From Candidatus Amarolinea dominans (GTDB lineage Bacteria > Chloroflexota > Anaerolineae > SSC4 > Amarolineaceae), in contig JADJYJ010000010.1 of assembly GCA_016719785.1 (NCBI GenBank), forward strand, positions 1 to 64,000: a stretch of 64,000 nucleotides of DNA, written 5' to 3'. Below, in pieces: positions 16,299-58,417 of the stretch (position 1 is the first letter of the stretch; each line of letters starts with the position of its first letter). A program made the translations under genes and the position numbers. The notes beneath the pieces are model-generated. The model did not search any database. It was not told the DNA's origin and saw nothing but the letters and a program-made list of their open reading frames with translations.

Positions 16299-16385
16299 CT
16301 ATGCTGCAAGCGGGCACGAATTGCGCCTGTTTCCGCCGGCAGAAGAGTGAAGTCTATTCCCACTTGCAGTATACCTCGCCTGTCC
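16299..16385. repeat. Palindromic MITE/REP-like element copy A (about 85 bp, ends TGCAAGCGGG...CC(G/A)CTTGCA)
   Basis: ctatgctgcaagcgggcacgaattgcgcc...gaagtctattcccacttgcagtatacc. A second copy lies at 58341-58417. Confidence 0.7.
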
Positions 16386-16420: not shown

Positions 16421-16870
16421 TCAATCGCGCCGCGGCTGGTCGAGCAGGCGGTTGGTCAGCGCGGGGCCGATGATCATGACCAGCGCGGCGATGGCCCGGC
16501 CGGTCTGAGTCACCGCGAAGATGTCGGCGTAGCCCACCGAGGCGCAGGTGGCGATGTAATAGAAGGCATCGGTGTAGGTGGCGATTCTAGGGTTGGCGTG
16601 TTGTTCGGCGCGATAAAAGGCCCACGCGGCCGCTCCGAGGAATTGCACGGCTGCATCGAACGGGTTTTTCGCGACCCAGTCCAAGAGCCGCGCCTCGACA
16701 TGCGTCTTGCGCGCCTGCAGAGACTGCAAGGTGGCTCCGAGATCAGCGCCCGAAACGCCCAGCCACGTCTGCAACAGATCAGGCGCCGGCGTTGGCGTGC
16801 TGGCGGATGCTGCCGGCAGCCGGCGCAGTAAATCGGTCAGCGCTTGCTCTTGTTCTGGGGTCAGCGCCAT
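16421..16870 (-). CDS. Small 2-TM ion-channel family protein (K+-channel pore fold, filter SVGYAD)
   Basis: YYIATCASVGYADIFAVTQTGRAIAALVMIIGP is a pore helix, filter and TM2. It is the last gene of the flotillin operon. Confidence 0.6.
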   Translation of the reverse strand: MALTPEQEQALTDLLRRLPAASASTPTPAPDLLQTWLGVSGADLGATLQSLQARKTHVEARLLDWVAKNPFDAAVQFLGAAAWAFYRAEQHANPRIATYTDAFYYIATCASVGYADIFAVTQTGRAIAALVMIIGPALTNRLLDQPRRD

Positions 16871-23415: not shown

Positions 23416-24246
23416 ATGGAGATCACGATTCGCCGTCTTTCGACGTTCGAGGAGTATATCGCGGCCGAGGAGCTGCAGCAGGTCTGCTGGCAGACCGACC
23501 CGATCGACGCGGTGCCGGCCCATCTGCTCTTGACCATTCAGAACGAGGCCGGGCTGGTACTGGGCGCATTCACGCCGCAGGGCGAATTGATCGGTTTTGT
23601 CTTCGGTTTCCTGGGCCGTGAAGGCGATGTGCTCAAGCACTGCTCGCACATGGCCGCGGTCCATCCGTATTATCGCGATCATAACCTGGGCTACCGCCTG
23701 AAACTGGCTCAGCGCAGCTTGATGCTGGAACAGGGGTTGGAGATCTGCACGTGGACCTACGATCCGTTGGAGGCGCGCAACGCGGTGCTCAACATCGCTA
23801 AGTTAGGGGCCACGGCGCGCATCTACAAGCGTAACATCTACGGCCAGCGCCTGGGCGGTCTCAATGCGGCCTTGCCGACGGACCGCTTTCATGTGCGCTG
23901 GGAAGTAAGCAGCGATCGCGCGCTGCACTGTGTGAGTACGGGCCAGCGCGTGATGGCGCCGGTCGCCGGCCAGCCCGAGCAGATGCTGACGCGGGTCATC
24001 ATGCAAGGCGACCTGCCGTTCCTGGCCGCCACCGGGCCGCTTCCTGCCGACGACATCATCGGCGTGCAAATTCCGTCCAGTTTCCAGCGCGTCAAGCGGG
24101 AGAATGTCGAGGCTGCCAGCCACTGGCGCCTGGGCACCCGCGCCCTCTTCGAAAACGCCTTCCGCGCCGGCTACACCGCCGTCAACGTCACCGCCGATGC
24201 CGAGCATCCAGAATCGCTGGCGGTGTATACGTTGGTGAGGGGGTAG
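23416..24246 (+). CDS. GNAT-family N-acetyltransferase (COG3375-like)
   Basis: Acetyl-CoA-binding-like core HCSHMAAVHPYYRDHNLGYRLK. Confidence 0.65.
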   Translation: MEITIRRLSTFEEYIAAEELQQVCWQTDPIDAVPAHLLLTIQNEAGLVLGAFTPQGELIGFVFGFLGREGDVLKHCSHMAAVHPYYRDHNLGYRLKLAQRSLMLEQGLEICTWTYDPLEARNAVLNIAKLGATARIYKRNIYGQRLGGLNAALPTDRFHVRWEVSSDRALHCVSTGQRVMAPVAGQPEQMLTRVIMQGDLPFLAATGPLPADDIIGVQIPSSFQRVKRENVEAASHWRLGTRALFENAFRAGYTAVNVTADAEHPESLAVYTLVRG

Positions 24247-24480
24247 TGCAAAGTGCAAAGTACAAAGTACATAGTGCAAAGTGCAGACGACGTTCCGCCC
24301 TGTTGTCAATGATGAATGCTGAATTCTGAATAGTGCATAGGACGTTCAGCATTCAGCTCTGAGCATTCAGCATTCAGCTCTGAGCATTCAGCATTCAGCT
24401 CTGAGCATTCAGCATTCAGCTCTGAGCATTCAGCATTCCACATTCAGCGTTTTGCACTTCGCACTTTGCACTTTGCACTT
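24247..24480. repeat. Compound repeat between convergent genes: 5x GCAAAGT heptamers, 4x 21-bp unit (gagcattcagcattcagctct), then the inverted heptamer array
   Basis: Read directly: gtgcaaagtgcaaagtacaaagtacatagtgcaaagtgca ... (gagcattcagcattcagctct)x4 ... gttttgcacttcgcactttgcactttgcactt. Confidence 0.85.
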
Positions 24481-27335: not shown

Positions 27336-27390
27336 GAGAGACTGAGAGACTGAGAGATTGAGAGATTGAGAGATTGAGAGATTGAGATCG
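27336..27390. repeat. 8-bp tandem repeat (gagagact/gagagatt, about 7 copies) in the 5' leader of the GH gene
   Basis: gagagactgagagactgagagattgagagattgagagattgagagattgagatcg, 15-70 nt upstream of the start codon. Confidence 0.85.
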
Positions 27391-30800: not shown

Positions 30801-30899
30801 CCGATGGAAATCTGATGGAAATCCGATGGAAATCCGATGGAAATCCGATGGAAATCCGATGGAAATCCGATGGAAATCCGATGGAAATCGGCGGAAACC
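30801..30899. repeat. 11-bp tandem repeat CCGATGGAAAT x8 (plus a degenerate 9th) in the divergent intergenic region
   Basis: ccgatggaaatctgatggaaat(ccgatggaaat)x6cggcggaaacc. Confidence 0.9.
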
Positions 30900-33300: not shown

Positions 33301-33711
33301 TTACACGACGCAGTAGCCGCACACTGTCTCCCCAGTGAAAGCGAGGCGGCGGCTGGCAAGGGGCGGTTGGAGTAGACGCGACGACGCGATGGCTCCTGCC
33401 GCTCCCTTGTGTTCCTCGCCCCGGTTGCCGACGTAGCTACGCATCCACTCCTGCGCCGACCCCGTCAGGTTGAAGCCCACCGTGCCGCCTGCCACGTCGT
33501 CCAGCACCTGCCCGGTGAAGCGGCGCTGCGTCGGCGTCGTACCGAAGGTGTAGCGGCTCTCGCCCCACGGCTTGTAGCGAATCTCCGACAGCCGGCCGCC
33601 GGTCTCGCTGGCTGTCAGCGCCGTGCTGCCGAGATGATCGGTCGCCAGCCAGCGCACCACCCCGTTGACCCGCAGCGCAATGCGCTGACCCCCGGCCTGG
33701 TAATACATCTT
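33301..33711 (-). pseudogene. Orphan RHS core-end fragment with a short divergent C-terminal tail
   Basis: MYYQAGGQRIALRVNGVVRWLATDHLGSTALTASETGGRLSEIRYKPWGESRYTFGTTPTQRRFTGQ is the conserved RHS C-terminal core. It has no upstream repeats. Confidence 0.55.
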
Positions 33712-33748
33712 CACCTCATCACCTGCCTTGCGAGCAAGACAAACAATC

Positions 33749-34137
33749 CTAATCCTCGAACTGCTCGCGCTGCAGACAATCCTTGTAGACGGCATGCCAG
33801 ACGTATGGCTCAAAGCTGCCGAGATCATCGTCCACGACGAATACGCCATTGACAGGCCTACTCTTGACAATCACGATGTCGGCTTGGTCATACTTATGAC
33901 GGCCGAAGAAGAAAAGATCCGTGATTGTTTCAAGCTTGCCGCCTACGAGATTGGGGCATGGCTGATGGTACCAGGCCTTTCGCTCAGACTCCGGATCGCA
34001 TCGTCGCGCAGCGTCCCCACGGGCACCTGTTTTCTCGCCTCCTCCAACGGCGATGTATAGCATCCAGCTACCAGTGTGACCAACAAGATCACGACACTCA
34101 CTGCTCCCAGTCTGCCGGCAACACTGATATGTTGCAT
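33749..34137 (-). pseudogene. Small lipoprotein directly downstream of RHS-1 (candidate immunity protein), frameshifted
   Basis: ORF 33943-34194 gives signal peptide plus lipobox VILLVTLVAGC. It continues in ORF 33749-34063 in another frame. Confidence 0.4.
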
Positions 34138-34160
34138 AACAAGCCTCCTGGCAGCGTCCA

Positions 34161-36687
34161 TCAGAACCAACGATCCAGCATGAAAAAGTTCCATGCGTGT
34201 GTGATGTCCGTCAACCCCAGGACACGGAATCGAACACCGAGCGCAGCCCCGCGATTTCCGATGCTGACATCTGACCAGCTATTGCGCCAATCGCCATGAA
34301 ATTGCGTGATTTCGCGCCCCGTGTTGAGCAAACTGCCGCCCGGGCCGTACTCCGCCCCCATGGTCAGCGCCCAAGCCCAATGATGCACATTCGCATCGTC
34401 ATCTGAGGTGCCCATGAACGAGGCAGGCAACCCCTGCCGATCAAAATAAACCCAGGTCCGTATGGGATTCCCTGCATTGCTGACCGCCGGCCAAGCGTTT
34501 GGCGCTTCCAAGCGATTGGCTAGACCTCCGAACAGGCTACCAATGTCTCTGGTGAACATACCCTCTTCGCCAGCTTTGTACCAACCGGTCAAGCGTTCCA
34601 GCGCGCTTGGCATGTCATTCCATGACCAGTTAGCAGGTCGGTTGTCTCGGAATACGCTCTCCAGGTTTCCCTGGACGTAGTTACCGTCAGCGTCGTAGAA
34701 GACTGACCAATTCCACTCGCCAGGAAAGGCTATCGAGAACAGACGAATCAAAATGTCTTCGGCCGTCGGCGCACGATGATGCATCTGCTCAAATTCGTCT
34801 TGCCACGCCTGATCCAACGGGTCGTGGCCTGATGGATCGATAAAGCGTAGAGGATTATTCCGGCAGTAAGAGTAGCGATTGAGATTTTGCGGATCGCCAG
34901 GATTGGGTATAATGCTGTCGGGTTGGATCCACCGGTTAAGATAAGGGTCGTAGTATCTGGCGTTGTAGAAATACAACCCAATGCTCGCATCCTCGCGTTG
35001 ACCCGTGAACCGGTAGGTCGTCGGCGTCGCGCCGACGGGCGTCCCTCGATTCTCACCCCACGGCTTGTACCACAACTCCCCCGTGCGCTCACCGCTGGCG
35101 CCATTGGCCGTCACCGTCGTGCTACCCAGGTGATCGCGCAACAGCCAGTACAACACCCCCGCCACGCGCACGGCCACCCGCTGACCGTTGAAATAGTAGT
35201 ATTTCGTGTGCGTCGTCGCGCCGCCAACCACCTTCTTCTCGTACAGGTTGCCGATCGTGGTGACCGTCTCCCCGTTCATCACGCTCTTGACCCGGTTCCC
35301 ATCCGCGTCATACACGAAGCTCGCCGTTGCTGCCCCGCTGATGCTGACCAGGCGATTCTCGTCATCATACGTCAGGGTGTAGGTGTTCCCCCCGATCGTG
35401 CGCCGCCGCATGTTGCCGTTCTGATCGTAACAGTAACTGCTGCCGTTGCTTGTGCTCACCACCGCATGCTTCTTCACCAACGCACCTTCCGGGCAACTGC
35501 CCGCCTGCGCCACCCCGTAGCTGTACGTCCCCTGCCCCGTCTTGCTGATCAGGTTGCCCGCATTGTTGTAGCTGTAGCTCTCATCGTACACCCAGCTCCC
35601 GGTCCCATCGTCGTAGCCCGCGCAAATCGCATCACCCGTGAAGCCGCGCAACAACCGATCCAACCCGTCGTAGCTGAAGCACTGCCGCTGACCGCTATTG
35701 CGCGCATCCACGATCCAGCGCACATTGCCGGCCGTATCGTAGCCATACGTCAAGTCCTGCAAACTGCTGGCATCCGCCGACGTTCCTGCCTTCACCTTCT
35801 GCAGGCGCCCCAGTCCGCCGCTCGCTGTCCAGGGATGGTAGGTGAACGCCATCTGCACCACCGGATTGTTGTTGGTGCTCTGCTTGCCCAGCTTCAACTG
35901 CGTCAGCCTTCCGGCCTCATCATACACCGCATTCCCGCTGCGCACATAATCCACACTGCTGTACATCCGCCCCGGCAGCCCCTGCGCTGTGTACGCCACG
36001 TTGACCGTCTCCGCACTCTGGGTCGGGTAAACCACCCGCAGCACCCGGTCCGCCGAATCATAGGTGTAACCGAGGGTGTACGCCTCCCCATCAATCGTGT
36101 GCGTTTCCGCCGTCACCCGCCCGCGCTTGTCGTATGTCCAACTCGCGCTGTTGTTGACTTCGCCGCCCACATACGCCCTCATCCCGGTGCGCCGACCCTT
36201 GCCGAACTGCGTGGCCCCATCGAACGCATCATAGCTGTAATCGGCCAACACCATCCCGCTGCTGCTGCCGCTCTGCCATTTCTGCGTCAGCCGGTTCCAG
36301 TCCGTCATAGCCAAACCCTATCGTGACATTCCGCGCATCGGTCTGCGCCACCAGGTTCCCGGCCGTGTCGTACGTGTAACTCCACGCACCCATGTCCGGG
36401 TCGTTCATACTCGTCTTGCGCCCCAGCAGGTCGTACGTGATCGTCGTCACCGCCCCATCCGGCCCGGTCATCTGCAGCAGCCGGTCGGCGATGTCGTAAG
36501 CATAGGTCGTCACCCCGTTCGCATTCGCATTCCAGGCCGGCGTCGGACACGTGGCCGTGCCGCTGCCCAGTCGGTCGCCAGCCAGCGGGCGCGGGCGGGG
36601 CGGGGGGCTCGGGGCGCTTTGCGCTGATACCGTCGTCGCCAGAGTGGTAACAAGCATCAACTCTGCCGTGCAAAAAGGGGACATCAA
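34161..36687 (-). pseudogene. RHS/YD-repeat protein (about 840 aa) with signal peptide and about 240-aa C-terminal domain; one frameshift at about 36300
   Basis: ORF 36229-36687 carries the signal peptide and the first YD repeats, and ORF 34161-36314 carries the rest. The core ends ...YRFTGQREDASIGLYFYNARYYDPYLNRWIQPD...RFIDPSGHDP, followed by the C-terminal domain. Confidence 0.8.
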
Positions 36688-36765
36688 ACACCTCCTCTAC
36701 CCTAGATAACGCTACTTTATCACAGCGTTACTTTACCCAACTTTGGTAGTGGTGTCCAGTCCTCA

Positions 36766-37177
36766 TTTCACATCGTACGGTGTCAAATCGAGCAGATTCA
36801 GAGGAATCCACCCTTCAAGAGAACCTGAGGATTTGACAAAGGCCCAGAATTCTTGATCGGTATTTGACCAGGCAAAGTCCCAAATGGTAACTTCTTTGTA
36901 GCATGGCAGAACCCCCAACAGATTACCTCTGTCACCCATGTATGCACTGTTTGGATCTGAAGGCTTGACACCGGGCAGTTCCCAGATACTAATCCCGCCT
37001 GGATCTAATTTCGGATCCCCTGTACATCCAATACTCGCCTTTTTTGGCAGTACTTGTAGTTCGTGTGGTGTTGTTGGTGTTCTCTCGGGGAGGGGTCGGT
37101 TGAGGCGATATCAAGGCGCATCCGTTCAGCGTCAACATAAATAAACACATCGTTATGGTCAATATGGTATTCAGCAT
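36766..37177 (-). pseudogene. Small lipoprotein starting 4 nt after the giant RHS stop (candidate immunity protein), frameshifted
   Basis: MLNTILTITMCLFMLTLNGC lipobox in ORF 36989-37270. After a frame change near 37000 it continues ...GCTGDPKLDPGGISIWELPGVK...WIPLNLLDLTPYDVK* to 36766. Low-GC region. Confidence 0.45.
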
Positions 37178-37181
37178 GGCG

Positions 37182-40100
37182 CTACCTCGCCCACGGCTGA
37201 AAGTAGTACCATGGCACACGATGACCAGGCGAGTTGCTCGCCCAAAGCCCGGATCGCGCATCCACAGCATAAGTCACGGCCAAGCCAACCTCTGCCATGC
37301 TGATGATTCCATCATACAACATGGACCCGTGGCTTACCGCCACATACCCCAAGTTCAGATCGGGATTACTCAACTCGCTGAGAGGGCCATCTCGAAGCCA
37401 ATTGCTGGCGTAACCAGCAGCTGGCCCAAAGAAATACCCCAGGTAAAAAAGTCCTGCGTAATGATGGCTTGGATTGGGGTCATCAACCAATGATGCTCTC
37501 CAGTTGGCTGTGCCTTCGAAGAGAGGTTCATATTGGGCCCATGCAGCGCCAGGGTTGGTTGCCATCTGCCAGGCTGCAGGGATGGCATGGCCAAGCGGTA
37601 CACCTCCCCAAATAAAACCAATGGCTTGGGCGTATAATCCTTCCTCGCCGGGTGCATAATACGAGGCCAGTTGTTGAAGATGAGTAACAAAACGATCCAG
37701 TCCTGCAGATGGAGCGCCTTGCCATGATGTGCTACCTTCCCAGAGTCCTTCCCTATTGGCGTGATACCTTGTCCAATCCTCATCTGTCCACGAACCGTTA
37801 GCCCCACTGCCGGCAAACAAGATCGAAAAGAACCGATCTCGGCGATCTTGGTCAGTTGGCGCACGATCATGCGCGGCGTAGAAGGCTTGCTCCCACGCAG
37901 CATCTATGGGGTCAAATCCACTCGGATCCACAAAACGTAAAGGTCGGTTCCCGACATAGCTGTACCGATTCAAACTTTGCGGATCTTTGCGGCTGGGGAA
38001 TGATCGTATCCGCGGCGAGGAATCGCCCGATGACCGGGTCATACCATCGCGCCTGGTAGAACAGCAACCCTGATCCACTATCCCGCCGCTGCCCCGTGAA
38101 GTTGAACGTCGTCGGCGTCGTGCCCGCCGTGTAACGCGGCGCGCCGTAGGGGTAGTAGCGAATCTCGGTGTTGGTGTTCAACCGATTCCCCGCGCTGTCC
38201 AGCGTCAGCGCGGTGGAGCCGAGATGATCCGTCAGCAGATAGTAGAGTACACCGCCGCTGTTCTCCGCCACGCGTGCGGCGCCAGCGTAATAGTACTTCT
38301 TGACCGTCCCGTTGTCTACTTCGTAAGTGTTCCCTACGAAGACCCGGGTCGCGCCGCTGATGGTCTCCTTGACCCGGTTGCCGTCGCCGTCGTACACGTA
38401 ACTCGCCGTCACGCCCCCGGACATCGCAGTCAGCCGATTCTCCGCGTCGTAGGTCAACGTGATGTCCTGGCTGCCGCTGATGCGCCGGGTGGCGTTGCCA
38501 TTCTGGTCGTACCAGTATTTCTGATAGCCTGCCGTCGTGCCCCCGACATGGGTCACAGCATGCTTGTGTGCGCCATTCTGATAGTAGAGGTTCGTGCCTG
38601 TGCTCTCGAAATTGGTGATGTTGCCCGCATTGCTGTAGGCGTAATTGCGCTGGCTGTAAGCTCCGTAGTTTCCATTGTTGGCAACGCAGGTCCCCCCGCT
38701 CAGCGTGCATGCCGTTTGCAGACGATCCAGTCTGTCATACGTGAAGCGCAGCGCCTGGCTCCCGCCGTACGCCGCCGCATCCGTAATCGTCAGCACGTTG
38801 CCCGCATCATCGTACGTGTAGCTGATGTTCTGCCGGTTATCGTAGTTCGGACTCGTGCCTGCCTTCAGGCTCAGCAGGCGGAAGTTCTCGGCCGCACTGT
38901 AGGCGTACAGTTGTTTCACCACCCCGGTCGTGCTGCCCAGCCAGCGTTCCATCACCTGCCCGCGTTCGTTGTACTGCGTCTTGCCGACATAGTAGGTGCT
39001 GCCGTTGCTGCGCACTGTGTTCAGCAACCCCTGCGTCGTGTACGCATAGTGTACCTGCTCGCCAATCTGACTCGCACTGCCGCCGGGGTATTTCATCCAC
39101 AGCGGCCGATCCGCCGAGTCGTATCCCCACTGTGTCACGAAGGTTCCGCCGCCCGTTCCGTTGATGGCCTTGCTCTCCTGCGTTACCCGTCCGCGGCCGT
39201 CGTAGGTCCAACTCGCGCTGCCGGAGCTGTCGCTCATCCCGGTGCGTCTCCCCTTGCCGGTTGTGCCGCTGTCATACGTGTAACCCACCGCCGTCGCACT
39301 GCATCCACTCGACCCGCTGTAGGTCTTGCCCTTCACCCGGTTGAGGCCATCGTAGCTGAAGGTGATGACGCAACCCCGCGCATCGGTCTGCGTCTGCAGA
39401 TTGCCCGCCGTATCGTAGGTGTAGCTCCACGCACCCATGTCCGGGTCGCTCATGCTGGTCTTGCGGCCGGCCAGGTCGTACCCGATCGTCGTCACCGCCC
39501 CGTCCGGCCCCGTCATCTGCTTCAGCCGGTCGGCCACATCGTAGCTGTAGCTGGCCTGCCCGTAGACCGTCGCTCCCCAGTTCGGCGCAGCCCCCGGCGC
39601 CAGCGTCAGATCATACTGCTTGACACTCGCCAACCGCCCAAAGGCATCGCTCTCCGAGATCGTCTGGTGGTTCAGCTCGTCCAGCATCGCCGTCTGTCGA
39701 TTCTGGTAGTAGGTGCGCACGGTGCTGCCGTCCGCCTGCGTGACCTGCGTCACCCGCCCCAACCGATCGGACGTTGACTGCGTCGCGGCCAGCCCACTCC
39801 AGTTCACCGCCTGGTACGTCACTCCGCTCACCGTACTCGTGTACGGCGCCGAGGCCGCCGCCAGGTTGCCCAGCCCATCGTAGCGCTGGCTCACCAGGCT
39901 CCACTGGCTGCTGCTGTACTCCTTCTGCACCTGCCGCACGCGCCCCAACCCATCGTAGAACGTGCGCTCCTCCAGGTAGGTCGCACTCGCGCTGGCGTCG
40001 CCATTCCCATCATCGCGCAGCAAATGCCGCTGCACATACAACCCCTGGTCCGTCGTGTAGACAATCTTCTCCGTCGCCGGGTTGCTGAACCCCGCCCCCG

Positions 40101-43100
40101 GCTTACGCACCTCCGTCAGCCGGCCAAACGTATCGTACGTATAGAGCGTGACCGCCTCGTTGGCGTCGGTCTCGCTCTGTATTTGTCCCACCAACCCGCT
40201 GCCCCCGCCGTCGCATTCATGCCGTAGCGCGATGGTCGTCGTCAGCGTCGCGCCGCCCAACTGACAGGCCTGCACCGTTACGCTCATCGCATAGGCATGA
40301 AACGTGCTGTCGAAGGCCGTCGTGACCACGCTGCCATTGGCCGCCGTCTCGCTCCAACGGTTGCCCCATTGGTCATAGCCGTAAGCCGTCGACCGCATCC
40401 AGTTCGCGTCACACCCCGTGCCGCCCTGTCCCGCCTGCCACACCTCTCTCACCTGCCCAGCCGTCGGCGCCTGGTTGTACGCCGCATAGCCGCTGTAGTT
40501 GTCGTAGATGGTGCGCGTCTGCCCCTGGCATGTCCCGCTTTCGCTCCCCGCGAACAGCTTCTCCTCCGCCACCCGATTGACGATGTAGGTCGTGCCGTCA
40601 TTGCGTGGGGAATAGACCCGCTTGATCGTTCGGTATGGTATCGTTGGCGCGGCCTCGCTGTATAGCCGGGTCAACAGCAGATTGCCATACGCCGCATCGT
40701 AGGTGTTGACGCTTTTGGTGTAACGCAGCGGCGGGTCCGTGCCGTTGGGGTCCACAACGTATTCGGTCTTGTCTTGCAGATAGACGAAGTGCATCCCGCC
40801 CGGCGTCCCCACGCTGGTCTCGTTCCAGGTCTGCAGCGAACGCGCCAGCAAGTTGTTGGTGACGCCCAAACCCGCACGCGTCTCTGTCTTGGACAGCTTG
40901 CCTTTCCAGCGGTGCTGATTGGTCGTGGTGTGGAACCACTGCTTCAGCCGCGTGTCCGGCTGACCGCTGCCGATCAAGGCGCCGCTCCCTACCAGCGTCA
41001 TTTCCGCTTCGGCAAAGCCCCCCGCCTCGTTGTCCCAGGTCGTCGTGTACCAGTAGCTCGTCACGATGTCCGGATCGCTCCCGCCCCCACGCCGCCGCTC
41101 CTGCTGCACCACCATTCCGCCGCTCGAACCGCCGTACGTAACCTCCACCCGTCCCTGGTAGCCGTTGTTCACCGTCACCATGTGCCCATCCGTCGTGCCG
41201 CTCCCGTAGGTGTAGCTGGTTGGCGGCAGCGCATTGCTGCCGGTCCCATAGTGCGTGATCGTACTCAAGTACAGCCGGCTCTGCGACGGCGCCGCCGGGT
41301 TGATGAACGCCGTCATGCCCAACACCAGTTTGTGCAGCAGCGTATTGTTGGCCATCACCTCCACCCGCTGCAGGTACTTTCGTGTCCAGAAAACCTGGTA
41401 GCCGGTCTCGTCGAAGTGCTGAGCCCGGTCCTCCCGGTTCAGATAGAATAGCTTCAGCTTGAAGGCGCCGTTTGGCCCATAGCTGATCTCCTTCACCCGC
41501 ACCGCACGCACCTGGATGCGCGCATCGGCCGTGTAGTCGCGGTTCCAACAGTCTGCCGGCACATTCACCGCCAACAACGAACCCTCATAGTCATAGCTGA
41601 ACGTCAGACGATTAGGCGTCGTTGGCGTGGTGTCGCGCACCTCGGTCAACACCCACTTGGTGAAGCGATGCACCACCCGCAGTTCCGAAGGCGTCCAGTC
41701 TCCATTGCTGCAATCGCGCACATACAGCGCCGGCTCGAAGTGATAGGTAATGCCGCCCTCGGTCGTCACCTCCCACACCAGGTTGTCCCGGTTGTACAGC
41801 GCCGGCGTCTGGGGCAGATCAATCGTCTTGAAGGGCGTCGGCGTACTGGGGTCAAAACTTCCATCGACTGGATAGTCAGGGTTGGAAGCGGTGGGCCGGC
41901 GAATCTTCAGGAAGGGGTCCTGCACGCTGTAGAAAATCTCGCCGTGTTTCTCCAATTCATGGGTCACGCCGTTCAGGGTCAGGTGTACTTTCCCATGCCG
42001 TCTGGAGTCAAATCGTGCAGGATGTAGCTCAACCCACCGATGTCCCAGCCCCACCCGGCCAGTTGATGATGACCGGCGCCGGCCAGGCTGCGGCTGCTAT
42101 AGTCCAGGCTTAGCCCAGGCGCCAGTCCGCCCGGCCCCGGCGGCGCTGCGATCGGGTAGCTCACGGTCCAGGCCCCGTTGTACAACTGCGACTGCACCCC
42201 TTCGATCCCCGGCGCAGGCTCTGGCACAATGGCGTTGCCTTGCGCAAACAGCGTCAAATGGGTCAGGGTGGTGATCAGCCGCCTTTGCTCCTGATCCATG
42301 CTCGTTGGCAAGACCACCCAACGCCCGTCGGCCGCATCCTGGAAGAACAGCGAAGCGCCCGGTGGCCAGGGCGTTTGCTCATCGCCAGCCGCCGGATCGC
42401 GATAGCGCAGCGTCAACCCCACCGCAAACTGTGTCACCGGCAGTCCCGACATCTCCGTGGCGCTCAACTCGAACAGGAAATCAAGGTTCGCCGGCTGATC
42501 GGGATCGCTCTCGTGCGGGTGTAGCGCACCAGGGTCGGTGCGCTGACCGTACCAGCCGGAATCGTGAGCACCACCCGCCCATCGCTGCTCTGCAACCGGC
42601 TCTCCTGATCAGGCATCACCCACACCTCATCCGGCCCCGGCCCCGGCGTCCAGGTGGCGTCGGCGTCGGCGTACACCCCTCATCATCCTGGCAGGGGTGA
42701 CGGTGCAGCCGTCGGCGTTGGCGTCGCCGTCGGCGTCCAGGTGGCGGTCGGCGTTGGCGTCACTCCTCATCCTCGGTGGCGTGGCCGTCGGCGTCGGTGT
42801 ACACTCCTCATCCTGGCAGGGCGGCGGCTCGGCCGTCGGCGTGGCGGTCGGCGGTTCGGCCGTGGGCGTCGGCGCGCAGTCCTCGCCCAGGCAGGGCGCC
42901 GCGGTGATCGTGATCGCAGCGCTGGCCGTCACCCCTGCGCCCACCTCCTCGCTCACGATGGCCGCGGTGTTGGTGATGACCTGCCCGCTGACCGCACCCA
43001 GCGCCTGCGCCTGGAACGTGCCGGTCAGCGTCGCGCCCGCGGCCAGTTGGCCGATGACCCACTCCAGCCGGCGCTCGGCCTCCAGGTAGCTGAAATCCCC

Positions 43101-50638: not shown

Positions 50639-53008
50639 CTACCGGTTGATGCTGTTGTAGCTGGCCAGCCACTGTCCACTCTTGAGCGTCTCCGCCACGG
50701 CTACCAGTGGTTGGTTAGACTGAATCCGTACCGAACCTGTCCAGTTGCCGCCCAAAGAAATCGTAGCACAATGGTTGCGGGTATTGCGGCTGAGCGATCT
50801 GCCCGCGACGATCGTCAAGTTCGACTCCTGGAACGTCAGCGTGCCGTTCTGGTCGTAGTAATAGATGTCCACGTCAGTGGCATTGCTGGTAGTTGGATTC
50901 TGGATGCGCAAGATGGAGTACTGATCCCACTGGTTTTCACTGGACGGGCAAGAAGTGTAGGCGGTGTTCTTCTGGTAGACACCCGGCAGGTAGGTGTTCG
51001 TGCTCGCCAGTCCGCTGTGAACGCCGGTATAGGCGCCAGCCACGTTGTTGTCCGGCCGGAGGGTGATCTGCGCTACTGCCAGCGGCTGATTGGACTCAAC
51101 AATGACAGCGCCTGCCCATGCGCCTCCCAGAACACTGTAGACGCTGGCCTCGACATTGCCACCCGTCTTGGTGTTGAAGCCTTTGGCCGCATTCGGTGTG
51201 ATGGTTTGACCGGAGATGGTCAGGTCTTCGTTGCCGGTAGCGGCATTGCGATAGCGCAGGGTCACGTTGGCATTGCTGCTGCCCAGGTTTTGCACGATGG
51301 TGATCGAGAAGCCCTGCCAGCTTCCTGCGTTGGGATTGCAGTCGGTGCAACGCCGCTCTATGGAAGGTGCAAAGACCGGCCGTGCGCCACCGCTGACGCC
51401 GTTGTAAGCCGCCACATACCAGCGCCAGTAGTTGGTCAGCACAGAAGTGATGAGCTGGCCGTTGGTCGAGGTAACCTTGACTGCTCCGGTCCAGTTGCAG
51501 CCGGCCAACGTTCCGCATTGAGTATTGTAGTAGTCCGTCTGCCTCAGATCCGGCACTGCACCGCCTGGATCACGCAAGTCGTAATTGCGAAAGCCGTTCG
51601 CTACCAGGGTGTCGGAGCGCGTGAAGTCGGTCACGCCGCCGCGGTTGATGTACGTGAGCTCCAGGCTGGCGGCCGCGGTGGTCGTGTTTTGCACCATGAA
51701 GCGGGAATACTGGACGAAAGGCACGCCGTGGGTGACCGGATCCGGGTAGTAGACGGCGTAAGGCAGGTACATCGCAGCGCTACCCGCGTCGAAAGCGCTG
51801 TAGGCGACTGCCGCGTTGCCATCCCCATAATCGCCGCCGCTATAGCGATTCTCCACGATCACGGCCTGGTCCTGGCTGGCCACCGCCAGGGTTGAGCCGC
51901 GACAAAAGGCGCAATAGTTGGAGAAACGCACCTCCCTGGTGCTGTTGAGCGCAATGAAGTCGGTATTCTGCCGGTGTACCCAGTCGTCAGCGAGCAAGCT
52001 GGTGTTGACTTGGGCTACCTTGGCCTGGCTGTTGTTGCGCACCAGGATGGTCGAGTTCCAGCCGTAGTAGTTGGATAGGATGTCCGGCAGATAGGCGGGA
52101 TACAGACCAATGAAGGTGGTCCGGCCCGCGACGAAGGTGTGGTTGCCCAGGTCTTCATAGAGGGTGTCGTTAGGATAGCGAGCATAGAGGTGGTAGGTCC
52201 CCGGCTGCACGTCGGTGGTACCAAAATTCTCCACCACCAAGTCGTCCGCATTGGCCCAGGTGTAGGCATAGGTCTGTGACCAACCATAGCTCCCCCAAGT
52301 GGCATTGGCAGGTTTTTGTATGCCATGAATTCGCAATCCGCCGACTGGGTTTCCATTGGCATCGGTCACTTTGCCTACTGCGTTCGCTGTTTGGGTCCCG
52401 CCGTTATTGAATGATTCAAGCCAGAGTTCAGGGTTCCGCGACCGGGCCTCTGAGTCGAGTGTGTTAGGCTCCAGCTGTCTGTCTGACTCAGGATGAACAA
52501 CAATCTGCTGGTGTAGGTGATTTCCCTGCGAGTAACTACCGGTGTCGTCCACTTCACCGATCTTGGTTTGGCCAGCGTATACGACGTTGCCCACCTGTAC
52601 TGGTACACTCCATTGTTTGAGATGAAGATACACGGAGTAGACGTAAGCCATCTGTTGCGATGTACGATCATAGTGTCGCTGATTGTGACGCACGAGCGCA
52701 AAATTGCCCCAAGCGGTGCTTCTGTCTCCATCCGGTCTATCTTCACGCAGTTGGACAACCGTACCGTCTGCGACAGCGTATACGCTGGTGCCGTTTGGGT
52801 AGGGAAAGTCGATGCCTTTATGCGTGCTTCCACCGGACTCCTCAGCATACAAATAATACTGGTTGATCTTTCCACCATTGTCAGTGATCGGGCGTCGAAT
52901 TTGGTATGCTGCGTAAATGTCACCAATAAGCGCTGCCATCAGTAACACCAGGAATGCAGCGATAAGTACACTTATTCTGAACTGCTTTTCTACGAGTGTG
53001 TTTGTCAT
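50639..53008 (-). CDS. Membrane-anchored M23/LytM-family metallopeptidase with large C-terminal domain of unknown function (copy 1)
   Basis: N-terminal TM, HKGIDFPYP...GNHLHQQI (HxxxD...HxH M23 motifs), then a 550-aa Asn/Thr/Tyr-rich beta domain. Confidence 0.8.
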   Translation of the reverse strand: MTNTLVEKQFRISVLIAAFLVLLMAALIGDIYAAYQIRRPITDNGGKINQYYLYAEESGGSTHKGIDFPYPNGTSVYAVADGTVVQLREDRPDGDRSTAWGNFALVRHNQRHYDRTSQQMAYVYSVYLHLKQWSVPVQVGNVVYAGQTKIGEVDDTGSYSQGNHLHQQIVVHPESDRQLEPNTLDSEARSRNPELWLESFNNGGTQTANAVGKVTDANGNPVGGLRIHGIQKPANATWGSYGWSQTYAYTWANADDLVVENFGTTDVQPGTYHLYARYPNDTLYEDLGNHTFVAGRTTFIGLYPAYLPDILSNYYGWNSTILVRNNSQAKVAQVNTSLLADDWVHRQNTDFIALNSTREVRFSNYCAFCRGSTLAVASQDQAVIVENRYSGGDYGDGNAAVAYSAFDAGSAAMYLPYAVYYPDPVTHGVPFVQYSRFMVQNTTTAAASLELTYINRGGVTDFTRSDTLVANGFRNYDLRDPGGAVPDLRQTDYYNTQCGTLAGCNWTGAVKVTSTNGQLITSVLTNYWRWYVAAYNGVSGGARPVFAPSIERRCTDCNPNAGSWQGFSITIVQNLGSSNANVTLRYRNAATGNEDLTISGQTITPNAAKGFNTKTGGNVEASVYSVLGGAWAGAVIVESNQPLAVAQITLRPDNNVAGAYTGVHSGLASTNTYLPGVYQKNTAYTSCPSSENQWDQYSILRIQNPTTSNATDVDIYYYDQNGTLTFQESNLTIVAGRSLSRNTRNHCATISLGGNWTGSVRIQSNQPLVAVAETLKSGQWLASYNSINR

Positions 53009-53020
53009 TGCTCTTGCCTC

Positions 53021-54403
53021 CTAATAGTCTAACGAAGAAAGAACGATGAAATCAGGCGTTGCTGAAAGCCCGGTTTGCACTCCAATGCTCAGCGAGAGAG
53101 TCCACACCCTCCTTAAATCAGTAACATAGATCAGTTGGGTGCCATCTGGAGACCAGGTCGCCAGCCATTCGTTGCTGGCGCTCGTAAAATTCGAGGTTAG
53201 ATGTTTCAGCTCGGTTCCTGTCCTATCGATAAGCCACAGGTCGGTAAGGGGTTGGGGCTCTTCATAATATCGAATTCCGGTAAATACAATCCAATTTCCA
53301 TCAGGAGACCAACGGGGAATCCCCGCGGTCACGTCAATGTCTCGCGTGAGTTGGGTTTGTCTGGATCCATCAGGGTTCATAATCCACAAGTTGTAAGGAT
53401 AATCAGGACCTGATCTCTCGCCTAACAGAGAGACATACAGAATCTTATCGCCATTAGGCGACCATTGTGGAAAGTACAGTTCCGGTGCCTGTGGTGACAC
53501 CAGCACAGGAACAGATCCTCCACCGTCTGCCTCAACGACCACCATCGTGGCAGACCGCCGAAAAACACTGTCCACCAAGACCAAACGCTGTCCACCGGGC
53601 GCCCAAGCGAAATTGACGGCTTTATGTTCATTTTCTCGATCAACCGGATAAATCTCGCCTCGATCCCCGGTCGCCACATCCACAATCCACAAGCCCTGAG
53701 TCCGAGTACTGTGATAGGCGATGCGCGCGCCGCCAGGAGACCAAACCGGTTCGATTCCACCCTGCACCAGCTGCCGCAAGATCCCCATTCGAAGATCGAA
53801 TAGATAGATGCTATATTCGGGTGCTTCACCTTTACTTAAGGATGTCCGACTTTCTACGTTGCTCAATACTAAGGCAAGTTGAGTTCCATCTGGTGACGGA
53901 TTGGCCCATGTGTCAACACCCATATCTTGGCTGGCTAAAAAGAGTGGCACTTGGGCGTGAACATCTATTAGCACGCGCTCGCTCGTACCATCATTGCGGA
54001 TAGCGCGAATAAGATTACCGGTACGAAAAGCAATCGTATACGATGCGGTCTGTCCCGGTGGCAGCGGAATGATGGGCGGTACCGCGGTGGGGATGCGGGT
54101 CACCACCGGCGTGGGCAGCCGCGTGGGCACAGGCGGAATGGTGGGCGTCGGTCGCCGGGTCGGTGGGGGCGGCTCGATCCACAGCGTGGGGACAGGCGTC
54201 GGTGTCTGGATAGGAGACTGGAATAGTGATACGATAGGTCCCGTTGTGCTGCTTGGCATCGCCTGCGGCTGCGCGACTTCAGTCAGCGGCTCTGGCGTGA
54301 CACTTGGCGGCCACCCGGGCCCGCAACTGGCTAACACAACCAGCAGACCGGCCAACAGCAGCGCCCCCAGTGCGATAGTCAATCTCATGTGCAACCCATT
54401 CAT
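53021..54403 (-). CDS. TolB-like WD40/PD40 beta-propeller lipoprotein with Pro/Thr-rich N-terminal linker (copy 1)
   Basis: LVVLASCG lipobox, PTPT linker, repeated WSPDG...I.F/Y blades (PD40 repeats). Confidence 0.75.
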   Translation of the reverse strand: MNGLHMRLTIALGALLLAGLLVVLASCGPGWPPSVTPEPLTEVAQPQAMPSSTTGPIVSLFQSPIQTPTPVPTLWIEPPPPTRRPTPTIPPVPTRLPTPVVTRIPTAVPPIIPLPPGQTASYTIAFRTGNLIRAIRNDGTSERVLIDVHAQVPLFLASQDMGVDTWANPSPDGTQLALVLSNVESRTSLSKGEAPEYSIYLFDLRMGILRQLVQGGIEPVWSPGGARIAYHSTRTQGLWIVDVATGDRGEIYPVDRENEHKAVNFAWAPGGQRLVLVDSVFRRSATMVVVEADGGGSVPVLVSPQAPELYFPQWSPNGDKILYVSLLGERSGPDYPYNLWIMNPDGSRQTQLTRDIDVTAGIPRWSPDGNWIVFTGIRYYEEPQPLTDLWLIDRTGTELKHLTSNFTSASNEWLATWSPDGTQLIYVTDLRRVWTLSLSIGVQTGLSATPDFIVLSSLDY

Positions 54404-54608
54404 GGCTTGTCCTCCTCAGGTCAGAGTGTCGCAAATCAATCGGTCGCCCAACCGGGCGGTTATGATGGGCGGCAGTTCCATCACACCCTAAAGTATAGCA
54501 CGGAGGTGGCTACAAACTGGCTACAAATGGGTGTTTTTAGGGGAAAAAATCAACGAGTTTTGGAGCAGTTTGGCGCCATGTCAAGGCTCGATGTGACGCG
54601 GCCGTTGC

Positions 54609-54637
54609 TTGACACTCATAAACATTTCGTTTATGAT
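54609..54637 (+). promoter_or_regulatory. Consensus sigma70-type promoter of higBA (TTGACA-17-TATGAT), giving a near-leaderless transcript
   Basis: cttgacactcataaacatttcgtttatgatat, with the -10 about 8 nt upstream of the GTG at 54645. Confidence 0.55.
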
Positions 54638-54644
54638 ATATCTT

Positions 54645-54926
54645 GTGATTCAATCATTCGCTGATGACGAAACGGAATACTTCTACACCACCGGCAGGTC
54701 ACGCCGTCTCCCAACCGAGATTCGCGCTCGTGCAGCGATGCGGCTCACACAACTGAATGCATCCACGCGCATCGAGGATCTACACCTACCACCGTCGAAC
54801 CGCTTAGAGGCACTGAGGCATGACCGCAGCGGACAGTGGAGCATCCGCATCAATGACCAGTGGCGGGTCTGTTTTCGTTTCGAGAATGGCGACGCTATTG
54901 ACGTCGAAATCGTTGATTATCACTGA
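54645..54926 (+). CDS. higB: HigB-type toxin (RelE/ParE superfamily, killer protein)
   Basis: (M)IQSFADDETEYFYTTGRSRRLPTEIRARAAMRLTQLNASTRIEDLHLPPSNRLEALRHDRSGQWSIRINDQWRVCFRFENGDAIDVEIVDYH matches the HigB consensus closely. Start assigned to GTG. Confidence 0.8.
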   Translation: MIQSFADDETEYFYTTGRSRRLPTEIRARAAMRLTQLNASTRIEDLHLPPSNRLEALRHDRSGQWSIRINDQWRVCFRFENGDAIDVEIVDYH

Positions 54927-54938
54927 GAAGAGGTTGTT

Positions 54939-55298
54939 ATGATCAGTAGTGGTTTGCCGCCCATTCACCCCGGCGAGTTTCTGCTTGAGATACTGCATGA
55001 ACTTGGCATTTCACAGGCACAGTTTGCGCGCGCCATTGGCGTATCGCCTATGCGCGTGTCGTATGTCGTCAATCGCACACGCCCGGTGACGGCGGAACTT
55101 GCACTGCTTTTCGGTCGCGCACTGGACCAATCGCCGCAATACTGGCTCAATCTACAAGCGGCTTACGACCTGAAGACTGCTGAGATAGCTATCGGCCAGC
55201 AGTTGCTGACCGTTGCCCAGTTGGCGCCTGCTAGACAGGCCAATACACCTGTTGGCTTGCGCGAAGGCCGTTCGCCAGCAGGGTGTCGGTGCGCGTGA
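54939..55298 (+). CDS. higA: HigA-type antitoxin (HTH_XRE)
   Basis: IHPGEFLLEILHELGISQAQFARAIGVSPMRVSYVVNRTRPVTAELALLFGRALDQSPQYWLNLQAAYDL. The ORF tail reads antisense through the truncated M23 copy, so the true C-terminus is probably near 55240. Confidence 0.8.
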   Translation: MISSGLPPIHPGEFLLEILHELGISQAQFARAIGVSPMRVSYVVNRTRPVTAELALLFGRALDQSPQYWLNLQAAYDLKTAEIAIGQQLLTVAQLAPARQANTPVGLREGRSPAGCRCA

Positions 55299-56697
55299 AG
55301 TCGGTCACACCGCCGCGGTTGATGTACGTGAGCTGCAGGCTGGCGGCTGCGGTGGTGGCGTTTTGCACCGTGAAGCGGGAATACTGGACGAAAGGCACGC
55401 CGCCGGTGACCGCATCCGGGTAGTAGACGGCATAGGGTAGGTACATCGCGGCGCTACCCGCGTCGAAAGCACTGTACGCAACCGCCGCGCTGCCATCCCC
55501 ATAATCGCCGCCGCTATAGCGATTCTCCACGATCACGGCCTGGTCCTGGCTGCTCACCGCCAGGCTGGAGCCCCGACAATAGAAGCAATAGTTGGAGAAG
55601 CGCACCTCCCTGGTGCCGTTGAGCGCAATGAAGTCGGTATTCTGTCGGTCTACCCCGTACTCATCGTCGGCGAGCAAGCTGGTGTTGACCTGGGCTACCT
55701 TCACCTGGCTGTTGTTGCGCACCAGGATGGTCGAGTTCCAGCCGTAGTAGTTGGATAGAACGTCCGGCAGATAAGCGGGATACAGTCCGATGAAGGTGGT
55801 TCGACCCGCCACAAAGGTGTGGTTGCCCAGGTCTTCATACAGGGCGCCGTTGGGATAGCGCGCATAGAGATGGTAGGTACCCGGTTGAACATCCGTAGTG
55901 CCAAAATTCTCCACAAGCAGGTCGTCCGCATTGGCCCAGGCGTAGGCATAGGTCTGTGCTGTCAGGAAATTGTGCGCCGGGTCCCCTTCCGCTGCCAGGG
56001 GCTTCTCCATTCCCCAGATCAGCTTGCCGCCAACAGGATTACCGTTGACATCGGTGAGTTTGCCTATCGCGCTGGTCGTCTGAACACCGCTATTATTGAA
56101 CGCTTCCAACCACAGCTCAGGATTGCGCGAGGTGTTTTGCGACCACTCCCAATCCTCTGGGTCAGTACGGTTGAGATCCGTGGAAAGATTGACCTGCAGG
56201 TGAAGATGAGAAAGGGTGCTATTACCCGTGCTATTGGACTGGGCAATTACCTGTCCGGCACTGACAGTATCATCAACATTGACGCTTATGCTGTTATACT
56301 TCAGATGCGCGTAGATTGAGTACACATAGGCCATTTGACCCACTGCACGATCGTAGTGCATTCGAGCATGCCGTATCATCACGTAGTTGCCAAATGCACC
56401 CTCTGTGTTTTGATTGTCACGCACATCCTCGTTAACGGCCATTACTCTTCCATCATCGGTAGACCGAACATTGGTACCTGTTCCATGCCGGAAGTCTACA
56501 CCTCTATGAACTTGGCCACCAGATTCTTCTCCATACAAGTAGACTTGATTGACGATGCCACCGTTATCAGTGATGGGCCTTCGGATAGAATAGGCAGCAT
56601 ATACGGTTATGACCATAAGAGCCGCAGTAACAGCAAGAATAAGCAAGCCATAGATGACGTAATGTCGTGGGTGAGAATGCTTGATCATAAGAATCAC
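55231..56697 (-). CDS. M23/LytM-family metallopeptidase paralog (copy 2), truncated at the 3' end by the higBA insertion
   Basis: Close to copy 1 through ...TRTDTLLANG, then 11 unrelated codons and a stop inside the higA region. It lacks the last about 300 aa of copy 1. Confidence 0.7.
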   Translation of the reverse strand: MILMIKHSHPRHYVIYGLLILAVTAALMVITVYAAYSIRRPITDNGGIVNQVYLYGEESGGQVHRGVDFRHGTGTNVRSTDDGRVMAVNEDVRDNQNTEGAFGNYVMIRHARMHYDRAVGQMAYVYSIYAHLKYNSISVNVDDTVSAGQVIAQSNSTGNSTLSHLHLQVNLSTDLNRTDPEDWEWSQNTSRNPELWLEAFNNSGVQTTSAIGKLTDVNGNPVGGKLIWGMEKPLAAEGDPAHNFLTAQTYAYAWANADDLLVENFGTTDVQPGTYHLYARYPNGALYEDLGNHTFVAGRTTFIGLYPAYLPDVLSNYYGWNSTILVRNNSQVKVAQVNTSLLADDEYGVDRQNTDFIALNGTREVRFSNYCFYCRGSSLAVSSQDQAVIVENRYSGGDYGDGSAAVAYSAFDAGSAAMYLPYAVYYPDAVTGGVPFVQYSRFTVQNATTAAASLQLTYINRGGVTDFTRTDTLLANGLRASQQVYWPV

Positions 56698-56768: not shown

Positions 56769-58142
56769 CTATCGCAAGAGAAGAAACGATACGACATCGT
56801 GATCCCAGGCTTGCCTGAGTGAACCGTCTCTGAGGGTCACATCCCAAATCCCGTCGCCTTCCCTGTAGAATACTATCCGCTGCCCATCCGGTGTCCAGAC
56901 TGGGTTCAGGTCAGTAGCAGGGTCATTATTCAGGCGTGCGAGTGCATTCCCATCATTGCTAATCAGCCAAAGGTCATATTGATAGGGTTCGCCTTCCAAT
57001 AGATTCGTTCCTGCAAAAGCAATCCAATTGCCATCCGGCGACCAGACTGGTGCGCCGCCGCCAGCGCTCATGTTTCGAGTCAACTGCCGCTGTACTCCGG
57101 TGTCTGCTTCGACAATCCAAATGCTAAGCGGTCGTCCGGGAGTTAGTCGTTCACCTTTCCTTGATCGGAACAAAACGTCCTTACCAGTAGGAGACCACTC
57201 GAGACCCAAGGCGTTCATCTCCATTGAAACTACTTGACGAGACTCGCCGCCATTGCCCACATTGACGATCCAAATACCCCCTACATTGGCGACACCGCCC
57301 CAGTTCTTCACCACGGCGATTCTCTGCGCATCGGGTGACCATGTGAACCAATCGGCCTGATGCTCGGTTTCGGGATAGCCTACAGCGAACAGTTCTTGAG
57401 TGTCCCCTGTGGCCACATCTACCACCCACAACCCCTGGGTTCGGGTGCTGCGATAGGCAATGCGAGCACCATCCGGTGACCACACCGGCTTGACGCCGTC
57501 TTCCACCAGCAATCGCAGGTCCCTGGTCGCCGGATCGAGGAGATAGATGGCGAATTCAACCTGTTTCCCCCTCGGTAACGTATCGAGGTTCTCGAAATCG
57601 CTTGCCACCAGCGCCAGTCGGCTGCCATCGGGCGCAGGACTGGCCCAGGTGCCCACCAGGAAGCTGCGGTCAACCAGAAAGCGCGATAATTGGGCAGGAA
57701 TGTCTATCACCACCCGGTCGTTGCGGCCGTCGCTGTCCACGGCTCGCACCACACTGCCCTCTCGATAGACGATGGTGTATGGTTCCGGCTCTCCCGGTGG
57801 CAGCGGAATGATGGGCGGCACCGCGGTAGGGATGCGGGTCACCACCGGCGTGGGCAGCCGCGTGGGCACAGGCGGAATGGTGGGCGTCGGTCGCCGGGTC
57901 GGTGGGGGCGGCTCGATCCACGGCGTGGGGATAGGCGTCGGCGTCTGGATAGGAGACTGGAATAGTGATACGATAGGTCCCGCTGTGCTGCTTGGCATCG
58001 CTTGCGGCTGCGCGACCTCAGTCAGCGGCTCTGGCGTGACACTTGGCGGCCACCCGGGCCCGCAACTGGCTAACACAACCAGCAGACCGGCCAACAGCAG
58101 CGCCCCCAGTGCGATAGTCAATCTCATGTGCAACCCATTCAT
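56769..58142 (-). CDS. TolB-like WD40/PD40 beta-propeller lipoprotein (copy 2)
   Basis: The first about 110 aa and the upstream 80 bp are identical to copy 1. The propeller is about 55% identical. Confidence 0.75.
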   Translation of the reverse strand: MNGLHMRLTIALGALLLAGLLVVLASCGPGWPPSVTPEPLTEVAQPQAMPSSTAGPIVSLFQSPIQTPTPIPTPWIEPPPPTRRPTPTIPPVPTRLPTPVVTRIPTAVPPIIPLPPGEPEPYTIVYREGSVVRAVDSDGRNDRVVIDIPAQLSRFLVDRSFLVGTWASPAPDGSRLALVASDFENLDTLPRGKQVEFAIYLLDPATRDLRLLVEDGVKPVWSPDGARIAYRSTRTQGLWVVDVATGDTQELFAVGYPETEHQADWFTWSPDAQRIAVVKNWGGVANVGGIWIVNVGNGGESRQVVSMEMNALGLEWSPTGKDVLFRSRKGERLTPGRPLSIWIVEADTGVQRQLTRNMSAGGGAPVWSPDGNWIAFAGTNLLEGEPYQYDLWLISNDGNALARLNNDPATDLNPVWTPDGQRIVFYREGDGIWDVTLRDGSLRQAWDHDVVSFLLLR

Positions 58143-58340: not shown

Positions 58341-58417
58341 CTATACTGCAAGCGGGAATAGACTTCGCTTTTCCGCCTAAGGAAAAAGGCGCAATTCGTG
58401 CCCGCTTGCAGTATATC
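58341..58417. repeat. Palindromic MITE/REP-like element copy B
   Basis: ctatactgcaagcgggaatagacttcgcttttccgcctaaggaaaaaggcgcaattcgtgcccgcttgcagtatatc. The ends and subterminal blocks match copy A at 16299-16385. Confidence 0.7.

Follow-up and report, generated by a model that had tools for sequence, protein, structure and literature searches.

What is the short palindromic sequence that occurs twice in a 64,000-nucleotide stretch of the genome of Candidatus Amarolinea dominans (this whole stretch is called the window below), each time in the neighbourhood of a gene remnant? An earlier note, made from the letters of the window, took the two copies for a MITE- or REP-like element and proposed either an association with deletion or rearrangement breakpoints or a mobilisable miniature element. 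Anaerolineae filaments such as Ca. Amarolinea matter in wastewater treatment; they are mostly uncultured and are known from MAGs. The comparisons reported here show that the window copies are ordinary members, in opposite orientations, of a previously undescribed family of elements. This 74-bp non-coding element is probably a bacterial MITE family of Anaerolineae, whose transposition we infer from the size, ends and sites of its copies.

Both copies are present where they had been noted, each 74 bp long (Table 1). The extent first given to copy A, up to 16385, was about 12 nt too long, the true end being at 16373. Both copies start with TAT(A/G)CTGCAAGCGGG and finish with CCC(G/A)CTTGCAGTATA. 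Between these arms come, in order, CACGAATTGCGCC, a variable centre (TGTTTCC-loop-GGCGGAAAAG) and GAAGTCTATT. In the alignment, copy A read on the + strand and the reverse complement of copy B are identical at 65 of 74 positions. Thus, the subterminal blocks that had seemed to occur in swapped order simply reflect one asymmetric element in opposite orientations. The same is seen with the covariance model (R2), which gives copy A 92.5 bits on the + strand vs 35.9 on the - strand (E value about 1e-24) and copy B 105.6 bits on the - strand vs 51.7 on the + strand (about 1e-27). The next-best match in the 64 kb reaches 12.9 bits. The forward strand of the element is defined here as the strand reading CACGAATT first. 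Beyond the two elements, this subterminal motif occurs in the window only as a tandem pair at 58267-58284, 58-75 nt from copy B. The idea that this pair is an extra binding site was rejected, as it is present at no other element locus.

The element had also been described as a long imperfect hairpin. The 15-bp ends do pair, but the dyad symmetry of the interior is weak (8-11 of 22 positions), so that the description was overstated. The predicted fold comprises a 15-bp outer stem and small inner helices. When compared with shuffled sequences, the gain in stability is clear for copy B (z -5.4 to -6.6) but marginal for copy A (z -1.8 to -2.3). With a G+C content of 0.49-0.53, vs 0.62 for the genome, the element is relatively A+T-rich. 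It has no coding capacity, 74 bp being too short for a protein.

Table 1. Positions in the window of the two element copies, of their terminal inverted repeats and of the neighbouring features.
Feature	Coordinates	Strand	Description
Copy A	16300..16373	+	TATG-CTGCAAGCGGG-CACGAATTGCGCC...GAAGTCTATT-CCCACTTGCAG-TATA; 67/74 identical to family consensus
Copy A, left terminal inverted repeat	16300..16314		Pairs with 16359-16373; 13/15 complementary
Copy A, right terminal inverted repeat	16359..16373		Pairs with 16300..16314
Copy B	58342..58415	-	Forward orientation on the - strand; 72/74 identical to family consensus
Copy B, terminal inverted repeat arm 1	58342..58356		Pairs with 58401-58415; 15/15 complementary
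Copy B, terminal inverted repeat arm 2	58401..58415		Pairs with 58342..58356
Stub ORF, 61 aa	16079..16264	+	First ~24 codons (MAHQTIETVIVGGGQAGLATSYWL) correspond to the N-terminal FAD-binding part of a flavin monooxygenase type of ~360 aa; rest lost
Synteny breakpoint	16374..16378		Homology with L109/L110 (window 17071-16378) stops at outer edge of copy A
Ion-channel gene (Ion_trans_2)	16421..16870	-	Stop codon separated from copy A by 47 nt; on the side of the break where synteny is conserved
PD40/Tricorn-type gene	56769..58142	-	Follows copy B in the element's forward direction, its start 199 nt away
DUF4143 remnant, 100 aa	58416..58718	-	5'-truncated; stop codon abuts copy B; Pfam DUF4143 positions 106-159 of 160

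The window copies belong to a dispersed family, as the earlier note had suspected. One genome per species was scanned with a pattern made of two 11-nt arms and an unconstrained interior. Matches with a conserved interior were found in Candidatus Amarolinea aalborgensis (4 contigs), two Anaerolineae MAGs, one Chloroflexota MAG and one unclassified digester bin, and the element occurs in at least five genome assemblies; the copy B locus was located on GCA_016704685.1. A scan of metagenomes gave 72 loci with 65 family matches, mostly from anaerobic-digester and activated-sludge assemblies (ERZ10267xx-8xx of PRJEB22104, CXWK01, UETR01). After identical sites were merged, 42 distinct flank pairs were obtained, including the two window sites. 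Five genome matches (L001, L003, L004, L008, L010) and 16 metagenome matches were discarded as unrelated hairpins having only the 11-nt arms in common. Neither two scans of viral contigs, which returned only chance matches, nor a search of the PLSDB plasmids gave any copy of the element. In the literature, a full-text search retrieved no description of a MITE for Chloroflexi, and the arm sequence appeared only in unrelated primers.

The search pattern demanded intact inverted-repeat cores. The copy number is thus a lower bound and the invariance of the arms is uninformative, whereas the conservation of the interior, left free in the pattern, is real evidence. The family consensus, TATACTGCAAGCGGGCACGAATTGCGCCTGTTTCCTTAGGCGGAAAAGTGAAGTCTATTCCCGCTTGCAGTATA, has a mean column identity of 91%, and its asymmetric interior blocks are kept across genera. 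The ends of the element are TA-TACTGCAAGCGGG ... CCCGCTTGCAGTA-TA, with terminal inverted repeats of 13-15 bp (consensus TATACTGCAAGCGGG / CCCGCTTGCAGTATA), and the length of the core is fixed, 66 nt in 37 of 42 sites. A half copy, with the left arm and the interior and lacking the right arm, lies in an Anaerolineae MAG contig (L011, 3198-3271), 1.7 kb from a complete copy. In two further contigs (L046, 770-930; L056, 763-895), the common sequence consists of 14 nt, the element and about 90 nt, the contigs being unrelated further out; in L046, an ORF resembling a small antitoxin begins where the common block stops. L046 also contains two copies of another repeat, approximately GCCTTCG[C/T]G.CACTTCGCGGCTTCGTGATCC, which is found in L056 as well (42-nt exact match).

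Where does the element reside? Positions -4 to -1 and +1 to +4 around the 66-nt core are T/A/T/A in 32-40 of the 42 sites. Past the flanking TATA, base composition hardly departs from background, apart from a slight A/T preference seen symmetrically at -7 and +7. TATA is rare in the 62% G+C window (39 occurrences in 64 kb) and three times denser outside genes. All sites are intergenic, except three doubtful ones, and several lie 0-10 nt past a stop codon. The adjacent genes have no function in common (amidase, FtsK, acyl-CoA dehydrogenase, class-III aminotransferase, RecA, nucleotidyl transferase, and an RNase D-like protein with 3'-5' exonuclease and HRDC domains), which argues against a gene-specific regulatory site.

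These features resemble those of bacterial MITEs, which measure 50-800 bp, have inverted repeats of at least 10-15 bp and target-site duplications of 2-10 bp (PMC11602168), and show 5'-TA-3' termini, relative A+T-richness and long stem-loop transcripts (PMC2229807). Indeed, the element is 74 bp long and non-coding, its terminal repeats match at 13/15 to 15/15 positions, and it is dispersed over 42 unrelated loci. Its TA termini would be compatible with a MITE derived from IS630/Tc1-mariner. A target-site duplication, which the earlier note proposed to look for, could account for the TA or TATA found on both sides of most copies. Because TA and TATA are palindromic, such a duplication and an extension of the inverted repeat look alike, and the rare non-TATA flanks are mixed, with two sites favouring a direct repeat (CATA/CATA, TCTA/TCTA) and three an inverted repeat (TATG/CATA, CATA/TATG, TGTG/CATA). 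Among 12 contig comparisons, no empty site was observed: contigs of the same species were all filled, and distant relatives were non-syntenic. The proposal of a mobilisable miniature element fits the size, repeats, lack of coding capacity and termini, from which mobility as such is deduced. The search for a parent gave neither solitary arms nor related pairs of ends 0.3-6 kb apart that would betray a longer element with the same ends. A Pfam scan of 37 window ORFs at stringent thresholds revealed no transposase, nor did inspection of the window and of about 0.6 Mb of loci reveal an element with an ORF and matching ends or a recurrent transposase. The only protein family recurring near copies consists of two-component-system paralogues.

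The following scenario can be proposed. A transposase encoded elsewhere in the genome would recognise the terminal inverted repeats of 13-15 bp, and recognition would probably extend to the conserved subterminal blocks CACGAATTGCGCC and GAAGTCTATT. Insertion would take place at TA- or TATA-containing sites, which are rare in this 62% G+C genome and concentrated just past stop codons and in promoter regions, and this placement would make copies accumulate in intergenic DNA. The dispersed 74-bp homologies may then act as rearrangement junctions. Finally, between co-directional genes, one orientation would survive, the transcribed reverse form being harmful or the forward form useful.

The last step is suggested by the orientation of the element relative to transcription. 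Gene directions were taken from a simple ORF caller, with a Pfam check at key sites. At the ten independent sites located between co-directional genes, one of which is that of copy B, the forward strand always follows the direction of transcription (10:0, binomial p = 0.002), and the ratio is 7:0 (p = 0.016) when the count is restricted to sites whose two neighbours both have Pfam support. In addition, the 'downstream' end of the element faces a gene start in a ratio of 27:8, vs 16:16 for the 'upstream' end (Fisher p = 0.025). We take this bias as evidence that transcription through the element in its reverse orientation is selected against, or that the forward orientation is favoured. It can also be read in another way, in which the element would above all be an RNA or DNA module that is functional, strand-specific and under selection, such as a 3'-UTR or operon-spacer hairpin involved in mRNA stability or processing, or a site for a host protein, its spread being secondary. 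The conservation of the asymmetric interior blocks across genera points in that direction. So do the predicted stability of the RNA, slightly greater for the forward than for the reverse strand (-34.0 vs -32.4 kcal/mol, forward favoured 30:14), and the G-U pairs of the inner helix, found on the forward strand only. Moreover, some MITEs act on transcripts: RNase III cleaves those containing Correia elements, and ERIC alters transcript levels in Yersinia (PMC10969869).

Several observations nevertheless make such a module an unlikely primary explanation. The mismatches of the outer stem favour the opposite strand, and covariation is no better than in shuffles (93.4% vs 93.2% paired; score 0.061 vs 0.055, reached by 34 of 500 shuffles). 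A known RNA or tRNA was rejected, the window having no Rfam match at gathering thresholds and no tRNA gene; around copy B, Rfam matches with E up to 10 were noise only. A promoter or terminator role was rejected as well: no sigma-70-like promoter was found at either copy, nor any intrinsic terminator, that is, a G+C-rich hairpin followed by a T run, and the flanks consist of TATA and unrelated sequence. The lack of functional relation between neighbouring genes also speaks against a module of this kind. Finally, at orthologous sites, no clear excess of conservation distinguishes the element from its flanks (0.6% vs 1.1% without adapter contigs, from non-independent pairs). An apparent extra conservation had to be rejected, since it disappears when two contigs are left out. 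In one of them (L074), the divergent 'flanks' are Illumina/Nextera adapter sequence, which occupies the left part of the contig (AATGATACGGCGACC...AGATGTGTATAAGAGACAG). The other (L042) looks contaminated too, a translated ORF containing the adapter-derived peptide LIHISEPTRL. A broader proposal would combine several of these aspects: a strand-specific transcript-level module, acting as a 3' UTR or operon-spacer hairpin, tolerated or selected in the direction of transcription only and with its asymmetric interior kept across several Anaerolineae genera, that would also serve as a rearrangement junction and be moved by a TATA-specific transposase type not yet linked to MITEs. We consider this combination rather doubtful.

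A different mode of spread has also to be considered, in which the element would be a palindrome of the REP/REPIN type, propagated by a RAYT (HUH tyrosine transposase acting on single-stranded DNA) instead of a DDE transposase. In favour of this mode, the element is a small palindrome with many intergenic copies, often located just past stop codons (0-10 nt at several sites); no DDE parent was found in the loci examined; and the strict orientation bias could reflect strand-specific transposition of single-stranded DNA. However, a REP is a 20-40-bp palindrome with a GTAG or CGTC tag at one end (PMC3733652), and this tag, present in most REPs, stands at neither end of the element (TATAC.../...GTATA). 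The two halves are alike over their 15-nt termini only, so that they are not paired inverted REPs, and copies are single, not clustered. A replication-strand effect was rejected, as the link between local GC skew and orientation is not significant (27:15, p = 0.09), and the loci contain no RAYT-like recurrent gene. A RAYT origin thus appears unlikely. Lastly, the idea of a local duplication or a chance palindrome without wider meaning, which the presence of only two copies in 64 kb and the frequency of the 13-mer arm (5 matches with up to 2 mismatches vs 1.8 expected, hence not rare on its own) might have favoured, retains practically no probability, because the same 74-bp sequence is found at 42 distinct sites in other contigs and organisms, the flanks of copies A and B have nothing in common outside the element, and the copies score 92-106 bits vs 13 bits for the best background match.

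With a MITE family as the preferred reading, the relationship between the element and the gene remnants can be examined. The earlier note placed each copy directly after a truncated gene, which raises the idea that the element marks the truncation. For copy B, the adjacency is exact, its TATA abutting the stop codon of the DUF4143 remnant (TGA at 58418-58416). The C-terminus of this remnant (MIYPWQLYF*) is native and common to homologues, which reach further at the N-terminus. Thus, the loss concerns the 5' end, about 300 bp from copy B. Copy A is indeed a neighbour of the flavin stub, but it starts 35 nt past the stop codon of the stub (16264). The best PDB matches of this ORF cover residues 3-26 of flavin monooxygenases of 357-361 aa (E 0.02-0.03), it has no Pfam match, and its reading frame is disrupted near 16150, at a distance of 150 bp from copy A. 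In our reading, a stretch in another frame ending at 16215 may resemble the C-terminus of such flavin enzymes, a resemblance that the PDB search did not confirm. Both remnants are real, but in neither case does the cut coincide with the element. Elsewhere, the genes beside the element at the sites checked are ordinary and apparently intact, as exemplified by recA, ftsK and the aminotransferase gene. The idea that the element marks the truncation of its neighbours is consequently not supported.

Some features of these surroundings deserve to be reported. Homologues of the DUF4143 remnant in four contigs (L105, L106, L107, L108; 58-78% identical; window 58416-58815) are also 5'-truncated; the codon at which they are cut and the genomic context differ from one to the next, and the C-terminus is the same in all; one of them adjoins a tRNA-like sequence. 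A promoter-like motif, TTGAC..TAAGAAAAATAGGA.TA, lies directly upstream of the differing truncation points in the window and in L107. The gene pair made of a PD40/Tricorn-type gene and a gene for a Peptidase_M23 protein is tandemly duplicated (50639-54403 and 55231-58142), and the interval of two same-species contigs (L092, L093) that matches this PD40 region (50639-58142) carries an HTH_3 / HigB-like toxin pair. In relatives, the PD40 gene is preceded by a 5' leader that is conserved and by the extended -10 motif TGCTATACT, which the window lacks at this place. Further away, the window encodes RHS-repeat proteins of 717 and 1380 aa surrounded by paralogous fragments (33301-42054), and a peak of the cumulative GC skew near 32-34 kb suggests a switch in strand composition or an acquired block. 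Short tandem repeats occur in or near gaps between crudely called ORFs (24245-24480, 27336-27387, 30801-30889 and 60376-60431); their units are a 7-mer AGTGCAA (x5.9), a perfect 21-mer (x4.5), the 8-mer GAGAGATT (x6.5), the 11-mer CCGATGGAAAT (x8.1) and a 10-mer (x5). The 21-mer unit recurs in the flank of the element copy of another contig (L067).

An association with rearrangements fares better than one with gene truncation. In a related lineage, represented by two assemblies (L109, L110), the ion-channel protein is 89% identical to that of the window, and the DNA is 89% identical over 694 bp. This match runs from window position 17071 down to 16378 and is lost within 0-4 bp of the outer TATA of copy A. 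Past the break, the two assemblies have an MFS remnant, a hydrolase gene and ABC-2 transporter genes. The gene adjoining the break in L109 (702-968) is a short MFS_1 fragment of 88 aa; gene remnants are therefore found downstream of the ion-channel gene in both lineages. The L109/L110 junction contains neither the element nor a TA, and the flank past the element site differs as well. The absence of a TA at the L109 junction indicates that the comparison reveals a rearrangement and not a simple insertion. The window arrangement is found in four other assemblies (L023, L060, L086, L087) and the alternative one in the two mentioned above. Copy A thus sits on a real synteny breakpoint. Two other contigs (L019 and L038) have the aminotransferase gene and the element in common and then differ, with an AAA_15 ATPase gene in one and a DUF1292 gene in the other, which represents either a second example of a junction or a chimeric join at the repeat. 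Taken together, these cases lend partial support to the breakpoint association put forward in the earlier note, as a consequence of dispersed homology or of the action of a transposase.

Several consequences can be drawn. Occurring at dozens of sites, a 74-bp repeat gives rise to assembly breaks and chimeric joins. Since one copy lies on a synteny break, the element is also a likely substrate for rearrangement, and filled and empty sites could be used as a strain marker. With its strict orientation between co-directional genes, the element provides a simple case in which selection on transcription through a miniature transposon can be tested. The current understanding of mobile DNA is unchanged; a family is added in a phylum for which the full-text search returned no description of a MITE.

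Comparison with known systems places the element closest to Correia/NEMIS, RUP and ERIC, and it belongs to none of them. It lacks the defining features of REP/REPIN sequences, the palindromes mobilised by RAYT. Like these, it is a short extragenic palindrome present in many copies. However, its ends, TATACTGC... and ...GCAGTATA, and its consensus are devoid of the GTAG/CGTC tag, and whereas a REPIN consists of two inverted REPs alike over their whole length, the halves of the element match at only 8-11 of 22 positions beyond the 15-nt termini. ERIC/IRU of enterobacteria is, like the present element, an intergenic palindromic MITE, but it measures about 127 bp, has 7-bp inverted repeats and an unrelated sequence, and its hosts are proteobacterial. 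At the 3' ends of Yersinia genes, ERIC exposes an RNase E site located in its 3' inverted repeat, thereby changing transcript levels (PMC10969869). By analogy, this effect might be a parallel to the 10:0 orientation bias described above, should the element act at the RNA level.

The Correia/NEMIS elements of Neisseria share with the present element a small size without coding capacity, terminal inverted repeats, 5'-TA-3' termini and the formation of a long stem-loop when transcribed (PMC2229807, PMC10969869). Target-site duplications have been described for Correia elements, and most of them were mapped immediately upstream of genes (PMC2229807, PMC10969869). They are nonetheless longer (about 107-155 bp vs 74 bp), with longer repeats (about 24 bp vs 13-15 bp), show no sequence similarity to the element and have hosts in a different phylum. 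Unlike the present element, at which no promoter-like site was found, they carry sigma-70 promoters and an IHF site. RUP of Streptococcus pneumoniae is a miniature element as well, with short inverted repeats, insertion at TA and a transposase proposed to act in trans (PMC2229807). It is thought to be mobilised by IS630-Spn1, the parent IS having been identified through the similarity of the inverted repeats. RUP thus has an identified parent IS, whereas none was found for the present element in the loci searched, and the TA duplication is here putative. By analogy with RUP, insertion at TA and mobilisation in trans would be the most likely mechanism for the spread of this element.
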